From a virus: a stretch of 64,000 nt of DNA. Below are positions 10,538 through 44,038 of the stretch, one piece after another; within the stretch, counting starts at the first letter, position 1; each line of letters begins with the position of its first letter. The stretch spans positions 28,247-92,246 of the IMG/VR virus record IMGVR_UViG_3300021437_000011; one strand, given 5' to 3'. A model generated the notes under the pieces. The model ran no database searches, was not told the origin of the DNA, and worked only from the letters and a program-made list of their open reading frames with translations. The translations under genes were made by a program, and so were the position numbers.

Positions 10538-11569
10538 ATGGCCGTACCTGGCCTTTCAGAAATCGTGACAACCACGCTGCGAAACCGCACCGGGGTGTTG
10601 CAGGACAACGTCAGTAGGAATAATGCGTTACTGGCTCGTCTCAACAAAAAAGGTCGAGTGAAGACGTTTTCAGGCGGTAGAACTATTGTTCAAGAGCTTG
10701 ATTACGCCAACAATCAGACCTTCGTCTGGTATAGTGGGTATCAGACGCTAAACATTAACCCAAGCCAAGTATTCACGGCTGCTGAATTCCCGATTCGTCA
10801 AGCTGCTCTTGCTATCTCCATCTCTGGCCTTGAGGAGATACAGAACAGCGGCGAAGAGGCTATTATTGATCTGCTTGAATCCCGTATCGAGAACGGCGAA
10901 CGCACGTTCCTGAACGGGCTGAGCATGGGCATTTACGGAGACGGCTCGACCGCCAACTCAATTGGCGGGCTGCAGCTTCTTGTCGCAGCCTCTCCAGCGA
11001 CGGGGACCGTCGGCGGCATTGACCGCTCCCAATGGCCATTTTTCCGTAATATCTCGTTCTCGGCGCTGACGAATGGCGGCGCGGCGGCGAGCGCGGCGAA
11101 TATCCTCTCGTACATGGATAGCTTGTGGGTGCAGTTGATTCGTGGTCGCGACGCCCCGGATCTGATCGTCGCCGACAACAATATGTACAAATACTACCTC
11201 CAGGCGCTTCAGTCTATTCAGCGCATCACAACTGAGGGCTCTGCTCCCGAGCTGGCCGAGGCTGGCTTCCAGACTCTAAAGTACATGTCTGCTGACGTGG
11301 TGTTGGATGGTGGATATCAGGGCCAAGCTACTGATCCACTCCCATATAAAATGTCCACAGACACCAGTGCAGTTGGCGGTTCTCCGGCTAACACCATGTA
11401 CTTCCTTAATACAAACTACCTGCACTATAGACCTTCTGCTCAGAGAAACATGGTTCCACTTGATCCAGATAGGTTTTCTGTGAACCAGGATGCTATGGTA
11501 AAGCTTATCGGCTGGGCAGGTAACATGACGCTAAGTAACGCGTTCCTGCAAGGTCTCATAACTACATAA
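10538..11569 (+). CDS. Major capsid protein
   Basis: SEIVTTTLRNR...DNVS.NNALL..L; SGGRTIVQEL; QNSGEEAIIDLLESRI; NQDAMVKLIGWAGN. Confidence 0.92.
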   Translation: MAVPGLSEIVTTTLRNRTGVLQDNVSRNNALLARLNKKGRVKTFSGGRTIVQELDYANNQTFVWYSGYQTLNINPSQVFTAAEFPIRQAALAISISGLEEIQNSGEEAIIDLLESRIENGERTFLNGLSMGIYGDGSTANSIGGLQLLVAASPATGTVGGIDRSQWPFFRNISFSALTNGGAAASAANILSYMDSLWVQLIRGRDAPDLIVADNNMYKYYLQALQSIQRITTEGSAPELAEAGFQTLKYMSADVVLDGGYQGQATDPLPYKMSTDTSAVGGSPANTMYFLNTNYLHYRPSAQRNMVPLDPDRFSVNQDAMVKLIGWAGNMTLSNAFLQGLITT

Positions 11570-32210: not shown

Positions 32211-32630
32211 TGGAGGCGTCCACTTGTATGTGTTCTGAATGTGCGTGAAATTAAGCATCTCGAACATGCCAATCGATGGGTAGTTTCGCGGGTTGATGTT
32301 GGCGAAGAGAGGCGCGTTCGACCTCTGCTGGAGCCTGACGACGGCTCGTGGCCCGCGCCCCTTTCCACGATATCGCCGAAGCAGGAAGAGCCCAACTTCA
32401 TTCGCCTTGGAAAGGTACATGGCTCCGACGCGCACGCCGTCGTCAACGAGCAACCACCAGTCCTTGTATGGGCGTCCCAAAACAAAATCAACGTGTGTGG
32501 GACGGCCTGGCATTGAAATGTGGCTGATATTGGTGGTCTCGTCTCTCTCAGCGAGCAGATCGTAGAGAAAATCAAGCGTCTCTGAGGGGGGCTCCCCCTC
32601 TTGCGGGTAGATGCTCACCAATTCGATCAC
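32202..32630 (-). CDS. GNAT N-acetyltransferase, PseH-like
   Basis: YRGKG.G and NINP.N..SI..FE.L.F; GTGA overlap with upstream gene; last gene of the sugar operon. Confidence 0.75.
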   Translation of the reverse strand: MIELVSIYPQEGEPPSETLDFLYDLLAERDETTNISHISMPGRPTHVDFVLGRPYKDWWLLVDDGVRVGAMYLSKANEVGLFLLRRYRGKGRGPRAVVRLQQRSNAPLFANINPRNYPSIGMFEMLNFTHIQNTYKWTPPSN

Positions 32631-33244
32631 GGCTGCTTCTCCAGAAGATGCCAAGTCACGTTATCGAGCCCAGTGGCGGGCTTCCACTCAAAGCCATAGG
32701 CGATGCATCTGAGGTCCGGGAATCGCTCCAGATAGAGCGAGCCGTAGTCGGCCTTCCATAGCGCGCCAGCGCGCCCTCGATATTCGACCGCCGTCACCTC
32801 CGGGCTGAAATATTCGATGGCGGCGATCCAGTGACTGGAAACCCGGTGAATCTCGTCCATGGCCGCCCCAAGCTTCGCAGGGGGGATATGAATCAGGACT
32901 CCTGAAGTGAAGACAAAATCATTCGAGGCGTCCTGAAGCGGAATTTGGCCAGCGCAGCCGCTCAGGACCTCCGCCCCGATATTGGTTTTCATGTACTCCC
33001 TAGCGCGCTGGTTGGGCTCGATGGCGGTCAACGCCACGGTGGGGCCAACCATATATCTGAGCGCTTTCAGGTTGGCTCCACATCCCGCGCCAATCTCAAC
33101 CGCCGATCTGATCTTTTCTTTCATCGCTCCAACGATTTTGAGAAGGAGTCGGCGGCGAGCCTCAATATTTTCGAACGAAGAGCAGTTCCTCTCGGTATAG
33201 TCATCGCCAAACTGACCTTCCCACAGCTTAAGATTATCATCCAT
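32627..33244 (-). CDS. Pseudaminic-acid-biosynthesis-associated SAM methyltransferase
   Basis: W.G.FGD.YT.RN, EIGAG.GANL, FVFTSGVLIHI, YRG...LWK.DYG. Confidence 0.88.
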   Translation of the reverse strand: MDDNLKLWEGQFGDDYTERNCSSFENIEARRRLLLKIVGAMKEKIRSAVEIGAGCGANLKALRYMVGPTVALTAIEPNQRAREYMKTNIGAEVLSGCAGQIPLQDASNDFVFTSGVLIHIPPAKLGAAMDEIHRVSSHWIAAIEYFSPEVTAVEYRGRAGALWKADYGSLYLERFPDLRCIAYGFEWKPATGLDNVTWHLLEKQP

Positions 33245-33875
33245 TCGACGACCTCAATATATCTTCAAGTCTCTTTATGTCTTCGGGGAAGTCTACACAG
33301 TAGTTAATGTCGGAAACATTGACCTTAGCCGCCAGTGTCCCTATGTCAAGGCGTTTATTATTTTGCATCCAGGGAGTTACGTGCTCCCTATCGTACGGAT
33401 CAGATGCCTCTCCGCTTGCCGCCTCCAGGCAACCCATGGTAAAGCATTCGCAATCGAACCCTTTTGGAAATGTCCTGGTGGGATGCACGTTCGATGCGTA
33501 GTCAAGATCCTCTTTTTTAAGCATCTCAAGCACGAGTTCGCATAACGCAGGATCAATGAACGGACAGTCCGCTGTCAAGCGCATGATGATATCGGCTTTG
33601 ACATCCTTGGCCGCCTCTTGATAGCGGCCGAGGACGTCATCCTCATCTCCAGCGAAAGCAAGAACGCGCATCTCTCGGCATAGGTTCAGGATGGGCAAGG
33701 ACGCCTCATCCTCTGGGAACGCGCACACCACTTTATCAATCCCAGAAATAAGTTTGGCCCTCGTTAGGACATGCTCCAGAACAGGCTTCCCGTCGAGAAG
33801 CGCCATGGTTTTTCCTGGAAATCTTCTTGAAGTCATCCTCGCTTGTATAATGCACGCGCTTACAATTCCGGTCAT
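33237..33875 (-). CDS. SpsF/PseF-like cytidylyltransferase
   Basis: IIQARM.S.RFPGK, G.EDDVL.RY, RLTADCPFIDP, REHVTP. Confidence 0.88.
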   Translation of the reverse strand: MTGIVSACIIQARMTSRRFPGKTMALLDGKPVLEHVLTRAKLISGIDKVVCAFPEDEASLPILNLCREMRVLAFAGDEDDVLGRYQEAAKDVKADIIMRLTADCPFIDPALCELVLEMLKKEDLDYASNVHPTRTFPKGFDCECFTMGCLEAASGEASDPYDREHVTPWMQNNKRLDIGTLAAKVNVSDINYCVDFPEDIKRLEDILRSSNG

Positions 33876-34618
33876 CCTGCCAGCCTTGTGTTAATCCCAT
33901 GGTCATGGAGATAGCGCCGCGCCCCCTGCGGCGTCATCTCGGCAAAAAGAAACCCCGCGCCAACGGCCACCGCGTCGGCGCCAACTTCGAACGCCTCAAG
34001 GAGATGAGCGTAATTCCCAGCGCCGCCAGCCGCGATAACGGGAACGCTGACGGCGGTCGAAACCTTTTGGATCAAATCACGATCAAATCCCGCCTCGCCG
34101 CCATCATGGGGAATGCTGGTTAAAATGATCTCTCCAACGCCATCTTCAACAGCGGCGCGCGCCATACATTCTGGACGTATATTATTGATTTTATTGCCAC
34201 ATTCCGTAATAACGCGATCATGGGCGACATCGATCGCGGCGACTATGGCCTGGGCGCCAAAGCGCTCAGACGCCGCGCGGATCAAAACACGATCAAATAA
34301 TGCGGAACCGAGCACAACCTTATCCGCGCCGGCGCGAAGGAGCTCGCGGATATGCTCCAACGTCGAAACCCCGCCTCCGATCGCTACGGGCATGAAGCAT
34401 TCAGCAGTGAACTCCCTCAGCTCGGCGAAGCGCGGCTCGCGGGCCTCTGGCGTCGCCGCGACATCGAGAATGACCAGCTCATCGATCTGACGCCGGTCAC
34501 ACACCCGGATAGCCTGCATAAGGGAGCCAACATGGCGCCGGTTGTGGAACTGCTTTCCCTTCACCAAGGATTTGCCATCCCACAAAAGCGTGGTGATAAC
34601 CCGCCTCTTGATCATCAC
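33872..34618 (-). CDS. HisF-like cyclase (WbuZ type)
   Basis: LVKG.QF, IDEL..LD, CFMP..IGGGV, GADKVV, GEIILTSI..DG. Confidence 0.9.
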   Translation of the reverse strand: MMIKRRVITTLLWDGKSLVKGKQFHNRRHVGSLMQAIRVCDRRQIDELVILDVAATPEAREPRFAELREFTAECFMPVAIGGGVSTLEHIRELLRAGADKVVLGSALFDRVLIRAASERFGAQAIVAAIDVAHDRVITECGNKINNIRPECMARAAVEDGVGEIILTSIPHDGGEAGFDRDLIQKVSTAVSVPVIAAGGAGNYAHLLEAFEVGADAVAVGAGFLFAEMTPQGARRYLHDHGINTRLAG

Positions 34619-35736
34619 GCGACCTCAAAAAGCGGCGTAGGACGCGGCGCGCTCAGGGACAAACTGAAGATCTGCTTGTTCGTGAATCGATCGGCCACAT
34701 TCACAAAATCATTGAGATTCAGGCCGAGGGGGCCGACGATTTCATGGAGCGGCTTTCCCAAGTAGGTCCAAGGGAACGCCCCGTCACGCTCCCTGACCAA
34801 GGCGACGGCTTCACTGCGTGCGAGTCTCCCGCGGCGGATATGGTTGCAGGCTATGTCGGTGGCGCGGCCGTAACCGTATTTCACCCACCGTAGATAATCA
34901 CGGCCGCCAGTGCAATAATTATCAAGATTCTCATAACCATAAAGGCTGCCTTCGATGTGACCGTCAATGTATTCAAATCCGCTTTGCTCTGCTATAACAA
35001 AGTTCTCATACCCATCCCATGGGAAATATCTCCCAAGCCATACGGATTGTATGCCTTTTTCCGAAAGAATGTCGCTAGACGGGAACCTATACATAGCCAT
35101 GTCATCGCATGACAGCCCTAAAATTTCCTGAACATCATCAACGCGCAGACCCAAAAGCCCAGCAAATTCCTCAATATAGCGACGCGTCATGCGTGGCGTA
35201 TCTTCGGAGCCAGCGGGGCCTGCTCCGTATTCGTCCTGAGATAGCTCGCCAAAGACGATTGTTGGGATATTCCACTTCACGGCTGCCTGGAAGGGAATGG
35301 TGTGGATTAGCACATGCTCCGGCCACGACCAGTCGCCCACCTCAGTCAGAGCCAAGCGCATGATCCGATGGCGGACCTCATCATTGGGGTGAAATTCGAC
35401 GAGATCGCACATCCGGCCGATATTGTCCAGATTGCGTCGCCCGATTGGCGTCAACATGTCAGTCCGCGCGTTGACGGCGAGGACCCGGAAACCAAGATCC
35501 TTGCATTTCACAACCTGCGCCGTGCTATCCTTTCCGCCGCTGACGGGGACAATCACGAGGGGCTCCCCCTTATGCCGCCAGCTCAGCTCCACCGTCTTCG
35601 CGAATTCCACGGCCCTGGCGGCCCAGTCGACGGCTTGGCGGCGGTCATAATTCTGGCAGGCGGAACACAGGCCATCTTCATCAAAGCGAAGGTCTGGTTT
35701 CAGTTCGGGGTAAACGCAGCGTATGCAGTATCTCAT
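34615..35736 (-). CDS. N-acetyl sugar amidotransferase (WbuX/PseA type)
   Basis: C.RC.YP..KP...FD..G.CSAC, PP-loop VSGGKDS, KYGYGRAT. Confidence 0.9.
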   Translation of the reverse strand: MRYCIRCVYPELKPDLRFDEDGLCSACQNYDRRQAVDWAARAVEFAKTVELSWRHKGEPLVIVPVSGGKDSTAQVVKCKDLGFRVLAVNARTDMLTPIGRRNLDNIGRMCDLVEFHPNDEVRHRIMRLALTEVGDWSWPEHVLIHTIPFQAAVKWNIPTIVFGELSQDEYGAGPAGSEDTPRMTRRYIEEFAGLLGLRVDDVQEILGLSCDDMAMYRFPSSDILSEKGIQSVWLGRYFPWDGYENFVIAEQSGFEYIDGHIEGSLYGYENLDNYCTGGRDYLRWVKYGYGRATDIACNHIRRGRLARSEAVALVRERDGAFPWTYLGKPLHEIVGPLGLNLNDFVNVADRFTNKQIFSLSLSAPRPTPLFEVA

Positions 35737-35748
35737 AAAATTTACCCC

Positions 35749-36762
35749 TTATTCGAACATTCCCTCTGACAATGCTGTTCCCTTATCGAGGTCTCTTCTA
35801 GATTTTTTTCCCAGAACTCCAGAATATTTGCTAGGGTCCAACCCATATCCTGGACGTATTACTTTAACATTGTCACACGTGAAACATTCTCCTTTTTTTA
35901 TGTCTTCGACGACGTAGATTGACCTTTTCATTTGCATGCTGGTTTCTTCGCTTCTTGGAGCCTCGCATTGCATGGCGGCCCATGCCATTTCGACGGAGCT
36001 GACGAAGTCGCGGAAGCGCTCCGGGCGGCAGGCAAAGTCCTCGTCAGCGCTCCCGCGCTCTCCAATGTGCTTTTCAATGACGCGCACCCCGCACGCAACG
36101 GCGGCGATCGCCGTGATGTTGTTGATGGTATGGTCGCTGAAACCAATCTCATGGCGAGAAAAGCGGCTCTGCAGATTCCTGATAGACCACAGATTGGCCT
36201 CCCGAACTGGTGTGGGGTAGCCCGACACACAGTGCAGAATGACGACGTCGCGCCCATAGAGGGCGTCCAGAGCCGCATTGATGTCATAGAGGCTTGCCAT
36301 GCCCGTGGAGATAATGACGGGCTTCTGCGTCTCGCGAACGCGCTCCAAAAGCTGAAAATGGTTGATCTCGGCCGATGCGATTTTATAGGCGGGGCAGTCG
36401 ATTTCCTCTAGAAAATCAACATCCTCAACCGAGAACGGGCTGGAGAAAATCGGAACGCCCAAGCCTTCCGCAGCATCAAAAAGCGGCCTGTGCCACTCGC
36501 GAGGCGTCATCGCCTCGCTGTACAGGTCATAGAGGTTCCGCCCTTTCCAGGCGCCGCCCTTGATCTCGAAGTCCGGGCCATTGCACTTGATCGTCAGGCT
36601 ATCGGGAGTGTAGGTCTGGATCTTGATCGCCCCAGCGCCGGCGCGCGCTGCGTCAACGACAAGCTCTTGGGCCTGCTCCAGGTCGCCACAGTGACCGCTT
36701 CCGATCTCCGCAATGGTAAGGGGCGGGCGGTTGAGCCCGAAGTCGTACCCAAGGATATTCAT
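35749..36762 (-). CDS. pseI: Pseudaminic acid synthase (NeuB family, C-terminal SAF domain)
   Basis: IAEIG..H.G, K.QTYTPD, YKIAS.E, IISTGMA, LHCVSGYP, GFSDHT, IEKH, IRPG.GL.P. Confidence 0.88.
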   Translation of the reverse strand: MNILGYDFGLNRPPLTIAEIGSGHCGDLEQAQELVVDAARAGAGAIKIQTYTPDSLTIKCNGPDFEIKGGAWKGRNLYDLYSEAMTPREWHRPLFDAAEGLGVPIFSSPFSVEDVDFLEEIDCPAYKIASAEINHFQLLERVRETQKPVIISTGMASLYDINAALDALYGRDVVILHCVSGYPTPVREANLWSIRNLQSRFSRHEIGFSDHTINNITAIAAVACGVRVIEKHIGERGSADEDFACRPERFRDFVSSVEMAWAAMQCEAPRSEETSMQMKRSIYVVEDIKKGECFTCDNVKVIRPGYGLDPSKYSGVLGKKSRRDLDKGTALSEGMFE

Positions 36763-37373
36763 TTGAAGATCTCCAACATCGACAAATCTGGATATTGATC
36801 GTTATGCAGATCAGGATTGCATCGAGGCAGGGAATGGAGCTTCAACAGCCCCTGGGCAGATGTTGATGGATTCATATAGCAATGCCATCCCAGCATAGGA
36901 AAAGCGTCGTTTTTCGGGGCTACGCCCTCAGTCCGGCCATCAAATCGCGCGCGGCGGAACCAAGCGTCAGCCTCGGGATCATCATGAAGGATAGCGCCGC
37001 CCTGCTCTAGCCCCAGGATCTTGGAAGCGTGGAAAGAGACGCAAACATACTTGTAGTCCTCCTCGCGCCCCGTGGTTGCGAACATCCTCCACGTAAAGCG
37101 CCTAGCAGCATCGTAAATTCTGTGCGGCCACAGCCGGTAAGCGCCCCTCCATGGTCTATCCTCAAATTTAACCGTTCCTCCAGCATGGATAATGCTCATG
37201 GGGACACTGACATATGTACGTTTTGGGATAATAACTTCGCCTACGCATTTATATTTACAGCATAAGAATAGAGCCATTGTGCACGAATTCACAGCAACGG
37301 CGTAAGGAGCGCCAGTATATTCGCATAGCGCTTCTTCGAAATCTTTCGTTACCTGATGTGGGTTGCGCGTCAT
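36759..37373 (-). CDS. Short DegT/DnrJ PLP aminotransferase (PseC-like)
   Basis: FE..L..YTGAPYAVAVNSCT.AL, SFH.SK.L..EQGG; only about 204 aa. Confidence 0.8.
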   Translation of the reverse strand: MTRNPHQVTKDFEEALCEYTGAPYAVAVNSCTMALFLCCKYKCVGEVIIPKRTYVSVPMSIIHAGGTVKFEDRPWRGAYRLWPHRIYDAARRFTWRMFATTGREEDYKYVCVSFHASKILGLEQGGAILHDDPEADAWFRRARFDGRTEGVAPKNDAFPMLGWHCYMNPSTSAQGLLKLHSLPRCNPDLHNDQYPDLSMLEIFK

Positions 37374-37374
37374 C

Positions 37375-38334
37375 TTAAACGGACCCAAGCAGCATCTTCA
37401 GGTCATCCGTCGACAGCCACTTATCATTGCGCTCCGAACTCAGCGAGAAACCCTCTTCCATGGGCTCGCTGGGCAAGAGCCAAGGCGGGCAGACGACGAA
37501 GGCGTATTCGTTCTGCGTCGCCGTCCGCCCCTCGTGGACAGTGATAATATCCTCGTGGAGCTTTTCTCCTGGTCGAACGCCAATGATTTCGCACGGGTAA
37601 TCATCCTGGCCATAGATTGCGGCGGCCAGATCCGAGATGCGAAAGCTGGGCATCCGCGGGATGAAGACCTCGCCGCCTTGCATTACGCCCAGACCATTCA
37701 GGACAAACTCCACGGCGTCTTGAATTGTAATCCAAAAGCGGGTCATGTCGAGGTGAGTGACGGGCAACGGCCTGCCCAGGGCGGACAGGAAGCGCCACCG
37801 GGGGATAACGGACCCGCGCGAGCCCGAAACGTTGCCGTAGCGAACGACCGAAAAGGCGGGGCCTCCCGCGCTGGTGAGATTGTTGGCGGCGACAAACAGC
37901 TTCTCGGCTGAGAGTTTCGTGGCTCCGTAAAGATTCGCTGGAGAAACAGCCTTATCCGTGGACAGAGCTATGACTTTAGCTACGCCGCAGGCCAGGGCGG
38001 CGCTTATGACATTGGACGCGCCTCCAATGTTGGTTTTAATCGCTTCAATGGGGTCTTTTTCGCATGCTGGGACGATCTTCATCGCCGCGGCGTGGATCAC
38101 GACGTCCACGCCCTTGAACGCCATTTTGAGACGATTCTCATCACGAACATCGCCAATATAAAACCGGAGCCGATCATCGGCGAGGGACTCCGGCCGCGCC
38201 AACGCCATAGCCTCTTGCTTCTGTTCGTCGCGCGAATAGATGGCGATTTTGGCGATGTTCCGGTCAAGGAGCAGCCTATCCACGATCGCTTGGCCAAAAG
38301 TGCCGGTTCCGCCAGTAATGAGAACGCTGTTCAT
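37375..38334 (-). CDS. pseB: UDP-GlcNAc 4,6-dehydratase (inverting)
   Basis: ITGGTGTFG, SRDE.KQ, GDVRD, HAAA.K.VP..E, STDKA..P.NLYGATK, RYGNV.GSRGSV, MTRFWIT, RPGEKLHE. Confidence 0.92.
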   Translation of the reverse strand: MNSVLITGGTGTFGQAIVDRLLLDRNIAKIAIYSRDEQKQEAMALARPESLADDRLRFYIGDVRDENRLKMAFKGVDVVIHAAAMKIVPACEKDPIEAIKTNIGGASNVISAALACGVAKVIALSTDKAVSPANLYGATKLSAEKLFVAANNLTSAGGPAFSVVRYGNVSGSRGSVIPRWRFLSALGRPLPVTHLDMTRFWITIQDAVEFVLNGLGVMQGGEVFIPRMPSFRISDLAAAIYGQDDYPCEIIGVRPGEKLHEDIITVHEGRTATQNEYAFVVCPPWLLPSEPMEEGFSLSSERNDKWLSTDDLKMLLGSV

Positions 38335-38723
38335 GCGCCAGCCTCCTTTTGCTCGGGAATCCCGACCATCCACGCCGGGGGGAGGACAAAATCATAATGG
38401 AGGGGGCGCCAGAGATGGAGGCAGTTGACGTGGTTGTTGATATGGTCGGATTCGGCGACATGGAATTGAACCGCTACCTCATGGGGCAGGAAAAACGCCC
38501 TTTTGATGAATTCCATTTCGATCCAATTGGGAACCCGGTTCTTGCGGCTCACGGACACATGGTCCCAACCTTCTCCAGAAGAAGCGATGACGCACATAAA
38601 CGCTTTATCAATGGGCGACATGAGGAAGAATCGCCCGCAGGAATCATCCCCATATCCGCCGTATATTGCAATGACATCACGAGACCTGTCCCTAAATTGG
38701 TTCAGGTCATTCAAGTTCCGCAT
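38331..38723 (-). CDS. Conserved phage hypothetical protein
   Basis: GWDHVSVS...R.P.W.EM..IK..FF...H...SDHIN.H..CLHLWRP pattern. Confidence 0.75.
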   Translation of the reverse strand: MRNLNDLNQFRDRSRDVIAIYGGYGDDSCGRFFLMSPIDKAFMCVIASSGEGWDHVSVSRKNRVPNWIEMEFIKRAFFLPHEVAVQFHVAESDHINNHVNCLHLWRPLHYDFVLPPAWMVGIPEQKEAGA

Positions 38724-38996
38724 GCGTGTACTCCAATGCCAGCGCAAGGCGCGCTAAAATACTTCGTATTGGAGGAGGGGGTCCAATCCAGGAGCTTTCC
38801 GTCATGGAATCTTAAAAGTCAATCTATTTTAATGACTTGTCTGGGGAAATTAGTTCGTGAGCTGATTAATAGGAACTTGGTTACGACAAAAAGTAGATAA
38901 AAATCAACAAAAACAGTAAACGTTTCTTGATATATGTGGTAACACCGCTCATGTTACGAGCGAGTATATTCTAAATTTCCAAAGGGACATGAGAGA

Positions 38997-39209
38997 ATGA
39001 CTAGCACTCATCACGACCATCTCGCCGATCACAAGGATCATCATCACAACTCCGCGCATCACCAGCTTACGTATGTCGTGGAGGCCGGAAATCATGCGAT
39101 GACGCATCTGGCGAAGAAGACGCCTGAAGATCGTGCAATCGCCAAGGACATCATCGGGCATCTGATTTCAAGCGTAAGCGCCCTTGAGGCCCACGCCGAG
39201 CATCTCTGA
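38997..39209 (+). CDS. Small His-rich protein
   Basis: MTSTHHDHLADHKDHHHNSAHH...; followed by a strong hairpin. Confidence 0.6.
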   Translation: MTSTHHDHLADHKDHHHNSAHHQLTYVVEAGNHAMTHLAKKTPEDRAIAKDIIGHLISSVSALEAHAEHL

Positions 39210-39259
39210 AAAATAACCCGAGCCGCTGAGCCATCACCAGCGGCTCGGGTTGCATTTTT
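39210..39259. terminator. Bidirectional intrinsic terminator
   Basis: 14-bp stem AACCCGAGCCGCTG/CAGCGGCTCGGGTT with an A-tract on the left and a T-tract on the right. Confidence 0.8.
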
Positions 39260-39617
39260 CATGGGAGCGTTGATTCGTGCCGGAATATGCCTGGGCAAGT
39301 CGTCTCGTACGCAAATGGTCCCATCAGTTCACTTCGTGCATACGCATAAGGTAGACGTATCCGACGTGCGCTTCATGCAGTAAATATCCCGTGCGATCTT
39401 GCTTGTGTTGGCCCATGTCGAGATGGACGTGCTTCGTGCAGCGGGCGTCACTTAAGCGTACTAGCCGTCTTTGCAAATCGAGCTTAAGCGCTGGGAATCA
39501 ATTGGATCGCTCGTGCTTTTTCACGGCGCGCCTCTTCGTGCAAGCATGAGAGCCAGCGAAGGCGCGTGCATCCCAGCCCGCATTGAAGTTGCTGGCCTAG
39601 CCGGATCGAACATGTAG

Positions 39618-40133
39618 TCGTGGATCGTGCTCGCGTGGAAGATATAGGCTATTCGCTAATACCCCTGTAATTATTACTCGTGCCTCCGTGCTCGCGTGGA
39701 GGATACCGATCTATGACAATCACATTTGATCACCTCCGCCGTGCATCCGCGTTCGCGTGGGGGATACACGATATTCGATTTGTAGGCGAAGCCCCACGCC
39801 CGTGCATCCGCGTTCGCGTGGGGGATGCTATAAACTTTGTTGCGGTATGCCATAGGATTCCCGTGCATCCGCGCTCGCGTGGAGGATACTATTAATTTTC
39901 TTGCAGCGATGTTATACCCTGCCGTGCATCCGCGCTCGCGTGGAGGATACGGGATCACCCATTGATCCGGGCCGTTATTCGCCCGTGCATCCGCGCTCGC
40001 GTGGAGGATACACCTCCGCATCCCATTTCGGGCCAGATCGGGCCCGTGCATCCGCGCTCGCGTGGAGGATACTAAAGCTCGATGGCGTCGGCGACGGTGA
40101 GGGCCCGTGCATCCGCGCTCGCGTGGAGGATAC
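39618..40133 (-). CRISPR. CRISPR array: 9 repeats (29 nt, type I-E-like, GTATCCTCCACGCGAGCGCGGATGCACGG) and 8 spacers of 32 nt
   Basis: Repeats start at 39618 (degenerate, 28 nt), 39678, 39739, 39800, 39861, 39922, 39983, 40044 and 40105, a 61-nt period. Degeneration increases leftward, placing the leader on the right (minus-strand transcription). Confidence 0.96.
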
Positions 40134-40409
40134 CCTTCCGCGTAAGCGTATGATCCATATATCAAAGAGCACGGATAGCTTCGCCCACCACCACAGGAAC
40201 GCTTTATTCCCCCGTCTTCGTGCGCCGACTCGTAGACCGCGAATACACACGTTCCGCCGCCAAGCTACACTCTAGTGCCGTTGCCTTGCTGTCGGCTCAC
40301 TCCCCCGAGGGTTTGTGCTGCGCACCCGCTTGGCCTTACACGGCAGCCCCCTGAAACCTCAGCTTCAGAGGGCGGGCAGTTACTTTCCCCCGCACGCGAG
40401 GGTAGGGGA
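40134..40409 (-). ncRNA. Putative omegaRNA/tracrRNA-like scaffold and array leader
   Basis: Lies between the tnpB-like stop and the first repeat. Minus strand reads UACCCUCGCGUGCGGGGGAAAGUAACUGCCCG...GUAAGGC...CGAAGACGGGGGAA, resembling IS605 omegaRNA landmarks from memory. Contains a hairpin at ~40348-40372 and CCGUGCUC, complementary to the repeat 3' end. Confidence 0.55.
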
Positions 40410-41831
40410 TCAATCCCAAGCTCGTTTGAGCTGGCTAGCCGCCTTGGCGATCTGGCCTTGCTCATATTCATTTTGCGCGGCGTTGGCTTGCCGCGAAACG
40501 TAATTACCGCAATCGCATATTAGCATGCGCTTTTCAAGAGGCATGTAATGGAGTTTCCCACACCGCGAGCATTTTTGCACCTCGGGAAAGAGCGTATGCG
40601 TTTCGTTGTACGTGCGACCGCGGTCGACAGCCTTGTATCCAAGGTAGCCCCGGAACTGCGCCATGGCGGCGCGCTTGTTCGCTTTTGTCAGGATTTTAGG
40701 AACTCTTTCAACATCTCCCGTCTGTTTGTTAACCCTTTTTGTCGTCATGAGCGATTTAACATCCATCTTATGCACAGTTATCGTGTCGAACTGCTTAACG
40801 ATCGCGTCAGAGACCTTATGCAGCATATCGTCGCGTCGATTGCGCTCCTTGGCGTGGAGATTCGCCAATTCGTCGGCTGTCTTGTAATAATCCTTCGTCC
40901 CCTTATGGCGGCGCGCCAAACGTCGGTTAGCGAGCCTGATGCGCCGCGCCAGCTTCCTGTCCTCTTTCATCGGCGGCGTTTGCTGGATTTTTTCCCCGTC
41001 GAATGTGGTCGCCAGAATGCTGGCGGAGATCTTGACGCCGCATTCGCGCCCGAAGTGTGGATAGGGTTTGGGGTCAGGGACTTCGAATTGACAAGACAGC
41101 CACCACTGCTCTCCCAGACGCCAGATGCGCCCTCCCTGCAGCTTGCCGTCAATAGGGACGCCCTCTTGCCTGAAGGTGATAGCTTGTTTCAGCTTCGGCA
41201 GCTTCACCTCTCGGGCTTTGTGGTCAAATATTGTTTGAGTGTTGACCATATAGACGCTCCCTACGGCATAGCGCGACTTTTTGAAGCGGGGGAACCCTGT
41301 GTCTCTTCCTCCAGCCCCGTCTTTGCGCTTCTTCCGCTCAAGGAGCATGGTTTTTATGGCTTTGACGACATCCTTACAGACCTGCTGAGAGGAGTGTGAG
41401 GGAAGCGCCTCAATCCATTTCATGGTCGGATTCTCCTTGAGACGAGCCATGATCTTCTGAAGATCGCTTTCCCAAATAAAAAGTTTGGGAGGCTCTCCAT
41501 CCACAGAGGAACCGGAAATTTTTTGGTAATGGTCTTGCGGCGGCTCTACAGGCTCCTTCCCTTCTCCAGGTTTTTTCTTAACAATTCCATACTTTGTTTT
41601 CTTGCCATATTTCCAGGAATGGAGAGCATCCGCATATCCCTCCTTAACGACTTGCGCCCAAATCTCGCGCCAGCGTAATTCTGGGCGGAATTTTGATCCG
41701 TCGTAGGCCGCCTGCTCCATCCCAAGCAGCAAATTCCACAGGTTTATGCCTCCTCGACGCCACCGATCCATGGTCCTCGCCTGCTCGGGCGTCGGCTTCA
41801 GCTTTATCTTAACCCCACGCATTACCGCCAT
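40410..41831 (-). CDS. Nuclease-dead TnpB/Cas12-like RNA-guided protein (TldR-like), CRISPR-associated
   Basis: KIKLKPTPEQ N-terminus, GFPRFKK, VKLPKL, WWLSCQFEV; RuvC-I GVKIS (D to K267), RuvC-II ITVHKMDV (E to H354), CSRC/CDC zinc finger, RuvC-III SRQANAAQN (D to Q448). Confidence 0.88.
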   Translation of the reverse strand: MAVMRGVKIKLKPTPEQARTMDRWRRGGINLWNLLLGMEQAAYDGSKFRPELRWREIWAQVVKEGYADALHSWKYGKKTKYGIVKKKPGEGKEPVEPPQDHYQKISGSSVDGEPPKLFIWESDLQKIMARLKENPTMKWIEALPSHSSQQVCKDVVKAIKTMLLERKKRKDGAGGRDTGFPRFKKSRYAVGSVYMVNTQTIFDHKAREVKLPKLKQAITFRQEGVPIDGKLQGGRIWRLGEQWWLSCQFEVPDPKPYPHFGRECGVKISASILATTFDGEKIQQTPPMKEDRKLARRIRLANRRLARRHKGTKDYYKTADELANLHAKERNRRDDMLHKVSDAIVKQFDTITVHKMDVKSLMTTKRVNKQTGDVERVPKILTKANKRAAMAQFRGYLGYKAVDRGRTYNETHTLFPEVQKCSRCGKLHYMPLEKRMLICDCGNYVSRQANAAQNEYEQGQIAKAASQLKRAWD

Positions 41832-42205
41832 TTATTCCCTGCCTTTAGCCATTGCCGTGATTTTATGAATGTGTGAACATATGGTATGCAACCATACTTG
41901 TCATCCAACCAAAGTGGAGGAGTTTATGCGCTGCGCATACACGGTGGTTATAGAGTGCGGAGAAATAACATGTAATGAAAGAGAAAAATCATGCGTTTTC
42001 TTAGCGATAAGGCGAACAGGCTCAGAGGCTGTCTGCTTATTTCCTCACGGCGGACCCCTTAATGGCAAGAGGGTCACTCCCCTGCGGACAAGAGAGGGGT
42101 GGGTCATCAGATCCGAGGACTGCAAAGACGCTTTCAAGGTTGTCGATAGCGAGTAGCGCATTAAGAAATAACCATATTCCAGGCAAAATATGCATAGGTA
42201 TCAAG

Positions 42206-44038
42206 ATGAGTGCGAATGCAAGTTACAAGAATAAGGTAGAAATTCCGCGCATAAAACCAAAAAAAAACCAGAAAGAACCGCAATTTATTTTCACTGATAA
42301 CGCAGGCAATAAAAGACGCGTTAACTATGTACTAAAAAATGACTCATATTTTTTCAGAGCTTGTGATGTTTGGTCTGCATGCACTTTATATGAAAAAGGA
42401 TTTTTAATTTCACATCTTAAATCAGTCGGCGACGTAGAGAAGATTCTCTTTGATAAAAATTCATGGTGTCCGTCCACGCGACCAACATATGCAATAACCC
42501 TTCAGCAAGCCCTCAAAGCGTGCAACGAACTGCCAGGGGGGCCTCATGGCGTTGAAACGTGGCTCAGGGACAACTTCCTCTCTCCAGAGGCAAGGAATCA
42601 AAGCCCCCTCCTCGTCATTGCCGCAGCGGACCCCATCCCAATCGCTCCCCCCGAGACGCCCGCCGCCGCGCTAATCACTTCCGCCAATGGCGAGATATCC
42701 TATGTGTTGCGCTGCAGGCAGGATGCGCCGCGCCAAGCGTGGCGGTTGCCAGCCGTAAAGCATGGCGAGACGGTCTTTTGGCCAGAACGCCTAGGCGTTG
42801 ATATCAATGACATCAACGAGATATTAGGCGTTGATGTCGTCGATTCCGTGCAGAACCGCTTATGGGCGCATCGGGACGTCCAGGATCAGACGCATCGCCT
42901 GATCGACAGCCCCTGCTGGGATAAAATGAAGGCGCTCCCCGCGATCCGCAACGCTAACCCTGACCTAGTCGCGGCGTATAGCGCGCTCTTCGCGTTGAGC
43001 GTGGGGGGAAATGGAGCGCAAGAGACCGTTAATGGAGAATCTGAAGCCAAGCAAGGAGTCTCCCAGCAAAAGAAAGCGGACGCAGGCGATCAGCCAGCGA
43101 TAGTCGCTTGGCCCCTTGCGAGCAAATCTCTCGCCCCTCCTGCGGAAGCCCCTCTCTCCCCCATGCAGTCGCGTTCCTTTGACTTCTCCACAGCTACCCA
43201 TCATGTAACGCATGTTTATGCGGCTATGGACGACGAAGGGCGGCTCTGGGTGTCAAGACCGTCCTTGAATAACGTTTTTGGGGTCGTACAGGGATGGCCG
43301 CTCGCTGCAAGGAACGCTCCAAGAAGACAGATCCTTTGCGAAGGAGAAAGCGTGGCGGCCATCTGCGAGACTAACATTCCCCTGCTGGTCGGAGGCCAGG
43401 AGGGGAAGAACAAGATTTTGGGACTGGATTTTGAGCATTGGCTGGCGGCGGAGGTTTCTCCAGCATTCATCGACTCAGCCCCTCCGTCAGCCATTATGAA
43501 GATAGAGGGCAAGGAGGCTTCTTTCTTTTTTCAAGGGTTCAGTTACCTGATCCGCGTAGCTAAAGATGAGGAAGAAGATCTCTGGGTGGCTATCTCCGAT
43601 GTTGAGAGGCTACTCGACCATCCTCTCAAAAATTGGCAAGGAGGCGCCCGAACCTCTCCCCGGCGTCTGATATCCCTAAATGGGACGACATTTCCAGCCA
43701 TATCGGAAGAGTGGATCGAAAGTATCGCAGCGGGAGCGCCGCCCAGTCGGAAAAACAGATCGAAGGCTTTCGTTCAATGGTGGACCGATAGCGTATGGCC
43801 CATGTTTAGCGCCCAGCCTAGCGCCACGCCATCTCTCGCGCCAACGCTCGCGCCAACGCTCGCCAGCCAGGCGCGAGAGGCCGCGCGCCTGCTGGTCCTG
43901 TTGGCCGACGAATCCGATGCTCTGCGCGCAGAAAATGCTCAGTTGAAGGCTGAGAACGCGGATGTAAAGGAGATGAAGACGACGCTCGCGAAAAAAATCG
44001 CGAGCGTTCAGGAAGCGCTTGGAAAAATAATAGCCTAG
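42206..44038 (+). CDS. Antirepressor-like protein with several degenerate Bro-N-like segments and C-terminal coiled coil
   Basis: Recurring segments: YFFRACDV; DDEGRLWVS...FEHWLAAEVSP; DEEEDLWVAISDV...AFVQWW.DSVWP. Confidence 0.5.
   Translation: MSANASYKNKVEIPRIKPKKNQKEPQFIFTDNAGNKRRVNYVLKNDSYFFRACDVWSACTLYEKGFLISHLKSVGDVEKILFDKNSWCPSTRPTYAITLQQALKACNELPGGPHGVETWLRDNFLSPEARNQSPLLVIAAADPIPIAPPETPAAALITSANGEISYVLRCRQDAPRQAWRLPAVKHGETVFWPERLGVDINDINEILGVDVVDSVQNRLWAHRDVQDQTHRLIDSPCWDKMKALPAIRNANPDLVAAYSALFALSVGGNGAQETVNGESEAKQGVSQQKKADAGDQPAIVAWPLASKSLAPPAEAPLSPMQSRSFDFSTATHHVTHVYAAMDDEGRLWVSRPSLNNVFGVVQGWPLAARNAPRRQILCEGESVAAICETNIPLLVGGQEGKNKILGLDFEHWLAAEVSPAFIDSAPPSAIMKIEGKEASFFFQGFSYLIRVAKDEEEDLWVAISDVERLLDHPLKNWQGGARTSPRRLISLNGTTFPAISEEWIESIAAGAPPSRKNRSKAFVQWWTDSVWPMFSAQPSATPSLAPTLAPTLASQAREAARLLVLLADESDALRAENAQLKAENADVKEMKTTLAKKIASVQEALGKIIA

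Follow-up and report, generated by a model that had tools for sequence, protein, structure and literature searches.

A TnpB-like gene and a CRISPR array on a phage genome

The window, by which we mean the whole 64,000-nucleotide stretch of DNA analysed here, belongs to an IMG/VR virus record of 92,246 bp that is complete by CheckV, and the public sequencing runs that contain window DNA are freshwater metagenomes, with no RNA run among those listed. On the minus strand, an open reading frame (ORF) of 473 aa (40410-41831) is followed by a segment of 276 nt (40134-40409) and then by a CRISPR array (39564-40133). The array, on the same strand, is formed by eight good repeats of 29 nt, the first at 40105-40133, with spacers of 32 nt and two degenerate repeat copies at the far end (about 39617-39645 and 39564-39592). 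Repeat length, spacer length and the repeat end, AUGCACGG, together give a type I-E-like format. In every related locus with enough flanking sequence the array lies downstream of the effector gene, on the same strand and with a 61-nt period. In seven loci, cas1 and cas2 are found between the effector gene and the array, and their products pass the NCBIfam thresholds, with 283-291 bits for Cas1e (threshold 215.6) and 85.6 bits for Cas2e (threshold 33.15). The type I-E format of repeats and spacers is thus explained by the Cas1e-Cas2e module of the relatives; the format is present in the window, Cas1e and Cas2e in the relatives only.

A search of the phage genome revealed no Cas1e, Cas2e or Cas6e. 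For Cas6e, the PF08798 search returned only a 15-bit fragment with an internal stop codon, and there were no matches in five related viral records, two of which carry terminal repeats and are apparently complete. No conserved partner genes other than cas1 and cas2 were found in the loci of the effector family. Nor was an association with a transposon seen, as the effector gene is single-copy in the phage and tnpA is missing among the neighbours examined. The exact core of the repeat is absent from 185,579 species genomes, so that no host type I-E array with the window repeat is known, and a search of viral sequences with the repeat gave zero matches. Spacers were searched against phage and plasmid collections; the only match, a borderline one, is that of the spacer at 39768-39799 to a methyltransferase gene of Mesorhizobium phage vB_MloP_Lo5R7ANS (32/35, E = 1e-3), too weak for a target to be named. 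Scans of the minus strand for sigma-70 promoters and terminators gave no candidate of either kind in the stretch from the ORF to the array; the only promoter-like site in the scanned region is upstream of the effector gene (41904-41876).

Several features lie nearby. Beside the array, minus-strand genes at 32627-38373 code for Polysacc_synt_2/PseB-like, DegT aminotransferase, NeuB, cytidylyltransferase and methyltransferase proteins, and look like a phage-borne nonulosonic-acid pathway. On the other side, a 658-aa ORF without a Pfam match (42062-44038) runs divergently to the effector gene. In a related phage, L002, the Rfam ribozyme family Hammerhead_II has a match some 2 kb downstream of the array (10987-11064; 58.6 bits, gathering score 37), and a second, weaker copy is found at 11237-11318 (29 bits).

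The 473-aa protein matches the Pfam family OrfB_IS605 and the Cas12f1-like TNB domain, as well as the NCBIfam model guided_TnpB (146 bits). Its AlphaFold model has a pLDDT of 85, and the top fold match is ISDra2 TnpB, with a TM score of 0.72-0.83 depending on the target length. By profile alignment, Lys267, His354 and Gln448 occupy the positions of the catalytic Asp191, Glu278 and Asp361 of ISDra2 TnpB. The three acidic residues are missing in 11 of 11 family members aligned with three ordinary TnpBs, while the zinc-finger cysteines are largely kept. The family comprises about 80 proteins of 450-740 aa, with a gap in E-value, 1e-49 against 1e-21, separating it from ordinary TnpBs; proteins 62-83% identical to the effector are present on other long contigs. 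Members have been seen only on viral and metagenome contigs, with none in a protein-profile scan of the 185,579 species genomes. The match to the C2c8 (V-U2) model NF038192 reaches 63.4 bits, below its cut-off of 350. From the loss of the catalytic residues, and by analogy with Cas12m, Cas12c and TldR, we infer that the effector would bind complementary DNA without cutting it.

A structured scaffold RNA between gene and array

The putative omegaRNA-derived scaffold extends from about 40206 to 40432 on the minus strand, with most of it inside the 276-nt segment. Its first hairpin, P1 (AGCUC-AAAC-GAGCU, 40419-40432), was read from the sequence and lies inside the last codons of the effector gene. 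P1 was assigned by eye, the MAFFT register being imperfect for the row of the window; its homologues in the relatives covary (ACCGC/GCGGU, AUCGC/GCGAU and GCCGC/GCGGC). Directly after the stop codon comes a second hairpin, P2 (40387-40402), which is found at the same place but with another sequence in all loci. This is the GC hairpin singled out by the initial annotation, and it is followed by GAAAGUAAC. Next to P2 is a nearly invariant box, GUAACUGCCCGCC (40371-40383). The core of the scaffold (40206-40383), supported by nhmmer, by a covariance model and by covariation, contains in the window the boxes GUAAC..GCCCGCC, GGCUGCCG..GUAAGG, GGCACUAGA (40271-40279), GGCGGAAC, GGUCUACGAG and GACGGGGGAAU (40206-40216), with helices between them. 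Common to the family are GUUAA-GCCCGCC, GGCUGCCG..GUAAG, GGCAYYRGA, often GGCGGAAC and GGUCUACGAG, and GAAGGGGGAAU. Against the family profile, the window's own locus gives E = 1e-32 by nhmmer.

In 15 distinct loci (the window, L086, L087, L083, L082, L002, L233, L003, L004, L007, L092, L095, L119, L239 and L240), the scaffold RNA lies directly upstream of the first repeat of the array, on the same strand as array and effector gene. Where cas1 and cas2 are present, it is found after cas2 and not after the effector gene, and thus the scaffold travels with the array. Three further candidate loci (L221, L222 and L238) were rejected as chance matches in coding DNA, and a loose DNA-pattern search returned mostly chance matches. 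In two of the loci without cas1-cas2, L083 (2020-2055) and L119 (reverse strand), a remnant resembling the C-terminus of Cas2e (..LLLT.., rich in Lys and Arg, then a stop) is found directly upstream of the scaffold; the sequence suggests that these remnants are deletion scars of an adaptation module.

In the 3' domain, 15 pairs were predicted by RNAalifold, and over 13 sequences 88% of the cells are paired, against 64% in shuffles (0/500). Pairing falls to 53% or less when the partners are slid, and 13 of the 15 pairs show compensatory changes, on both sides. The 5' domain combines the first hairpin with a long-range UGCCG:CGGCA helix and with a variable hairpin, the closure of which is GCC/GGC. 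Moreover, a covariance model (R1) built without the window, from 12 other sequences (alignment A7), finds the window at 40206-40279 (33.3 bits, E = 4.5e-8), its sole significant match in the 64 kb. Folding 40176-40445 as a single sequence gave a structure no more stable than shuffles (z = -0.87), a measure that is uninformative in an RNA as rich in G+C as this one. Judged by conservation and covariation, the segment is a conserved, structured scaffold RNA and not a plain leader or 3' untranslated region (UTR).

The same model also matches the 3' ends of ordinary tnpB genes, taken as distant relatives (L019, E = 1.9e-6; L057, 0.009; L011, 0.017), and nhmmer agrees. A core made of GCGGCGGAAC, a hairpin and GGUCUACGAG is common to the scaffold and to the tnpB 3' end of L019, which also shows a sub-threshold match to the Rfam family RAGATH-18. 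In the window itself, an Rfam scan of 38500-42500 (E ≤ 10) returned noise only and no family of the omegaRNA type. As in omegaRNAs, the scaffold overlaps the 3' end of the effector gene, P1 being inside the ORF. Descent of the scaffold from a TnpB omegaRNA is supported by these comparisons. In this respect the initial annotation, made from the letters of the window alone, was borne out: the scaffold it called omegaRNA-like is conserved, matched by a window-free model and homologous to ordinary tnpB 3' ends, the further hairpins it described are conserved helices, the covariation across homologues that it proposed as a check is present, with the compensatory pairs given above, and the segment does sit in the position of an array leader.

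The leader proper occupies 40134-40170 (minus strand), with GCUCUUUGAUA (40160-40170) as its conserved box and the motif CGCUUA immediately ahead of the first repeat; the relatives have the corresponding box GNUC(U/A)UUGA and motif (A/G)CUU(A/G). In the relatives the box is independent of the repeat sequence. It resembles a -35 element (TTGAAA, TTGACA, TTGATA), and in three loci it comes after a hairpin, like the tail of a terminator; consensus scans at the box predicted neither a promoter nor a terminator.

Anti-repeats in the relatives and candidates in the window

In ten aligned relatives, the 21 nt directly after GAAGGGGGAAU pair with nt 1-21 of the repeat. Over these ten loci, 86% of the cells of the anti-repeat:repeat helix are paired, against 75% in shuffles (0/500) and at most 49% when the register is slid, and 12 of the 21 pairs show compensatory changes. 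When each anti-repeat was paired with the repeats of 13 loci, the own repeat came first or second in seven to nine of the nine correctly anchored relatives, depending on the measure; for L083, the anchor of which was misplaced in one ranking, it came first in the other. L239 fits the same 21-nt register (18/21 by hand count). About 28 of about 181 paired cells (some 15%, also counted by hand) are G:U pairs, a share that favours pairing between two RNAs over the targeting of DNA. In alignment A6, positions 13 and 16 of the anti-repeat are mismatched in 6 and 8, respectively, of the 10 loci, and by hand count in L239 as well; the two seem to be mismatches conserved inside the helix, much like the bulge of Cas9 guide duplexes. 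On sequence grounds, the layout of the relatives' anti-repeat is that of a type V tracrRNA. Two of the relatives, L239 (10866-11380) and L240 (reverse strand), have a near-identical scaffold with few substitutions, the same leader and the same repeat, and entirely different spacers. The arrays of the family thus turn over, which implies active adaptation.

The window has two candidate anti-repeats, both on the minus strand and with overlapping targets in the repeat. The proximal one, GCGUUCCUGUGGUGG (40188-40202), begins 3 nt past the scaffold, at the site of the 21-nt anti-repeat of the relatives, and pairs 13/15 with nt 5-19 of the repeat (RNAduplex, -20.2 kcal/mol). The distal one, UAUCCGUGCUC (40167-40177), pairs 11/11, with two G:U pairs, with nt 14-24. 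It contains the octamer CCGUGCUC (40174-40167), found where the initial annotation had placed it, the 3' half of which (GCUC) belongs to the leader box. The pairing proposed there, with the repeat 3' end GAUGCACGG, can be formed as 6 bp, a bulged U and 2 bp, but the register with nt 14-24 is the better one. The same annotation had warned that an 8-nt match could arise by chance, and rightly so: when the 276-nt region was dinucleotide-shuffled 2000 times, 69% of the shuffles had a contiguous Watson-Crick or G:U complement to the repeat of at least 8 nt, and so did 55% of 454 real tiles of that length taken from the window. A run of 11 nt has a P of about 0.05 in the region as a whole and of 0.018 within the 72 nt past the scaffold. 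The longest complementary run in the region has 12 nt (40238-40249), but falls within one of the scaffold hairpins and is clearly a coincidence. Moreover, the duplex of the first 34 nt past the scaffold with the repeat of the window itself (-21.5 kcal/mol) ranks 12th among 13 repeats; these 34 nt pair better with the repeats of most other loci. Neither candidate is clearly above chance, and the window's own anti-repeat is, as far as its sequence tells, short or eroded. The tracrRNA-like role of the segment is supported in the relatives, the scaffold of which ends in a true anti-repeat; in the window there are the two candidates.

Two other sequences bear on the choice between the sites. In L087, at the distal site and just before UCUUUG, AUCCACGC pairs 8/8 with GCGUGGAU. 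A low-depth contig from a second freshwater metagenome (depth 2), a variant of the phage, differs at 6 of 103 nt from the window (40206-40308) and keeps the scaffold, with substitutions at 40236, 40249, 40260, 40273 and 40276; one of its substitutions turns a U:G into a C:G pair, and another brings back GGCACUGGA, the consensus of the family. Immediately past the scaffold the variant has AUUCCGCG: past GGGGGAAU it continues with UCGGAUUCCGCGUG-UUCUUUGACAA, which complements nt 17-23 of the repeat if its repeat is identical to that of the window. This part is different and shorter than in the window, with the breakpoint exactly at the junction between scaffold and anti-repeat. L087 and the variant hint at the distal site. 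In both, the pairing partner is the 3' arm of the repeat hairpin and not the 8-nt handle left by Cas6e, which goes against the proposal that the octamer captures that handle; processing by Cas6e, part of the same proposal, is likewise unsupported, no Cas6e being encoded in the phage or in the five related viral records. In L086, a match of 8/9 is found before the box by hand pairing, and one of 15/16 to repeat nt 1-16 further downstream. Within the subgroup without cas1-cas2, formed by the window, L086 and L087, the best complementarity thus lies at differing positions.

One effector family might, on these data, use two guide designs. Members with Cas1e-Cas2e would combine a 21-bp anti-repeat with diverged repeats, and the window subgroup would combine hairpin repeats of the I-E kind with an anti-repeat of 8-11 nt that invades the 3' arm of the hairpin. 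The short design could let a non-cutting TnpB-type protein of the phage load transcripts of host type I-E arrays besides its own, and so borrow or sequester guides. We think this quite unlikely; if true, a class 2 effector would be in cross-talk with an array format of class 1.

A probable split guide and its alternatives

The segment probably encodes the guide-scaffold RNA of a CRISPR system of type V-like organisation, carried by the phage and built around a RuvC-dead, TnpB-derived effector. The RNA would start in the last codons of the effector gene, fold into a multi-helix scaffold and end in GACGGGGGAAU at 40206. Across the family, the following 21 nt would pair with repeat nt 1-21, such that about seven nt of the repeat (22-28) and the spacer emerge beside the 3' end of the scaffold, a geometry expected of an omegaRNA split into tracrRNA and crRNA. 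As there is no terminator between effector gene, scaffold and array, the effector mRNA, the scaffold and the array may be made as one transcript; since Cas6e is absent, a host RNase such as RNase III would presumably trim the long RNA duplex. The transcription, the ends and the processing of the RNA are deduced here from the DNA. The effector would bind the two-RNA guide and then complementary DNA, and would silence or block its target rather than destroy it. In the window, which lacks the adaptation genes and has a short or eroded anti-repeat, the pairing would fall to the distal or the proximal candidate, and 40134-40166 would serve as the array leader.

The covariation between segment and repeat, taken alone, fits RNA:RNA and RNA:DNA pairing alike, and could be accommodated by an omegaRNA that was never split. 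The 15-21 nt after GGGGGAAU would then be a fixed guide, with which the dead effector binds the repeat DNA of its own array, regulating for example array transcription or spacer integration, and the crRNAs would not be guides at all. The scaffold is omegaRNA-like, the guide of omegaRNAs directly follows the scaffold, and TldRs are dead TnpBs with fixed guides (10.1101/2023.11.30.569447). However, G:U pairs at the frequency seen here and two conserved mismatch positions are usual in RNA duplexes but poor for R-loops; retention of Cas1e-Cas2e and the turnover of arrays (L239/L240) would serve no purpose unless spacers acted as guides; and the sequence after the scaffold has no second copy in the 92-kb phage genome. 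We regard a fixed guide as very unlikely. A role for the host's type I-E machinery is just as improbable in our estimate, whether the scaffold captures in trans, through a short anti-repeat, crRNAs matured by a host Cas6e or, more broadly, the array is a mini-array served by host Cascade with the TnpB-like gene a mere neighbour. The 29-nt repeats, 32-nt spacers and AUGCACGG end, the canonical I-E hairpin of the L086 repeat, the restriction of the window subgroup to short anti-repeats and the lack of adaptation and processing genes in the phage would all agree with it. Yet the link between effector, scaffold and array is kept in 15 loci, which rules out a chance neighbour, and Cas1e-Cas2e, as found in the relatives, account for the I-E format. 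None of the species genomes searched contains the exact core of the repeat, and no Cas6e/Cascade gene was found in the phage or in the five related viral records (the gene searched for being Cas6e). In addition, the complement in L087 and the variant targets the 3' arm of the hairpin (nt 14-24), which Cas6e would hold.

The window copy could also be a decaying remnant, with an inherited scaffold, cas1-cas2 lost and the anti-repeat eroded to the point that it no longer pairs with the present repeats, the segment serving only as a 3' UTR or leader. The low rank of the duplex with the own repeat (12th of 13), the degenerate repeats at the far end, the phage's lack of adaptation genes and the cas2 deletion scars in L083 and L119 point that way. 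Against it, the ORF of the effector is unbroken, the boxes of the scaffold are kept across the family, proteins 62-83% identical are encoded on other long contigs, and the variant from the second metagenome keeps the scaffold, including the change from U:G to C:G and the restored consensus GGCACUGGA. Decay of the window copy is thus unlikely, and a guide scaffold for the dead effector is the reading we retain.

The splitting of an omegaRNA into tracrRNA and crRNA is published for TranC (Jin et al., Cell 2025, as cited in PMC13565253; LaTranC, PDB 9JFO/9JFQ), and an intermediate of this kind, put forward as a possibility by the initial annotation, had already been described, for TranC and Cas12n. 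In the account given in the citing paper, TranC resembles the present system in its TnpB-sized effector and in a split omegaRNA-like scaffold with crRNA from an adjacent array, and is an intermediate towards Cas12 nucleases, whereas the present effector has lost all three catalytic residues of RuvC. Its relationship to LaTranC is distant (profile E = 4e-17, covering the C-terminal half; Foldseek rank 24), and the family described here differs in its type I-E adaptation module and in its occurrence, seen only on contigs of viral or metagenomic origin. Cas12n (type V-N, formerly V-U4/C2c9) is likewise a miniature, TnpB-like and tracrRNA-dependent effector, the tracrRNA region of which overlaps the ORF (PMC12216341). 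RdCas12n (PDB 9J09) is the best-scoring characterised CRISPR effector in a sequence search of the PDB (E = 5.7e-28), but ISDra2 TnpB is closer to the window protein (E = 1.5e-41), and RdCas12n has an active Asp287/Glu386/Asp484 site and cuts DNA (PMC12216341), whereas the window protein has Lys, His and Gln there.

With TnpB omegaRNAs (ISDra2-type; Rfam RAGATH-18-like motif) the scaffold shares its start in the 3' end of the gene and a core. It differs in that no guide is fused to it, an anti-repeat, leader and array following instead, and in that the RNA of the relatives is detached from the gene; the association with IS200/IS605 or IS607 elements is not found, and Cas1e and Cas2e are the conserved neighbours. 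Dead TnpB and Cas12 binders are known: TldR (10.1101/2023.11.30.569447), Cas12m (PMC11013384), dCas12f-sigmaE (PMC13472631) and Cas12k. Like these, the window protein has a TnpB/Cas12 fold with RuvC lost or unused, and RNA-guided DNA binding is expected of it. TldR is also phage-encoded, but has one fixed guide and no array, whereas the family here is array-linked throughout. Cas12m needs no tracrRNA, and its similarity to the window protein is weak (E = 8.5e-5). dCas12f acts together with a sigma factor, and Cas12k together with Tn7 genes, whereas in the present family cas1 and cas2 are the only conserved partners. A survey reports about 40 predicted V-U groups, some of them inactivated (PMC10691335). 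In the literature searched, groups V-U6 to V-U45 of that survey aside, we found no description of a RuvC-dead, Cas1e-Cas2e-linked, phage-borne TnpB family. The concept of the split is thus already published; what would be new is the dead, phage-borne family together with its two anti-repeat designs.

The family offers a natural and well-sampled case of the passage from omegaRNA to tracrRNA, with an ancestral core that can still be recognised and with covariation between anti-repeat and repeat, in a lineage that went on to lose nuclease activity and that lives on phages. Should the 473-aa effector prove to bind DNA in a guide-programmable way, it would rank with the smallest natural binders fed by a CRISPR array, and would provide a further case of phages with non-cutting CRISPR systems.
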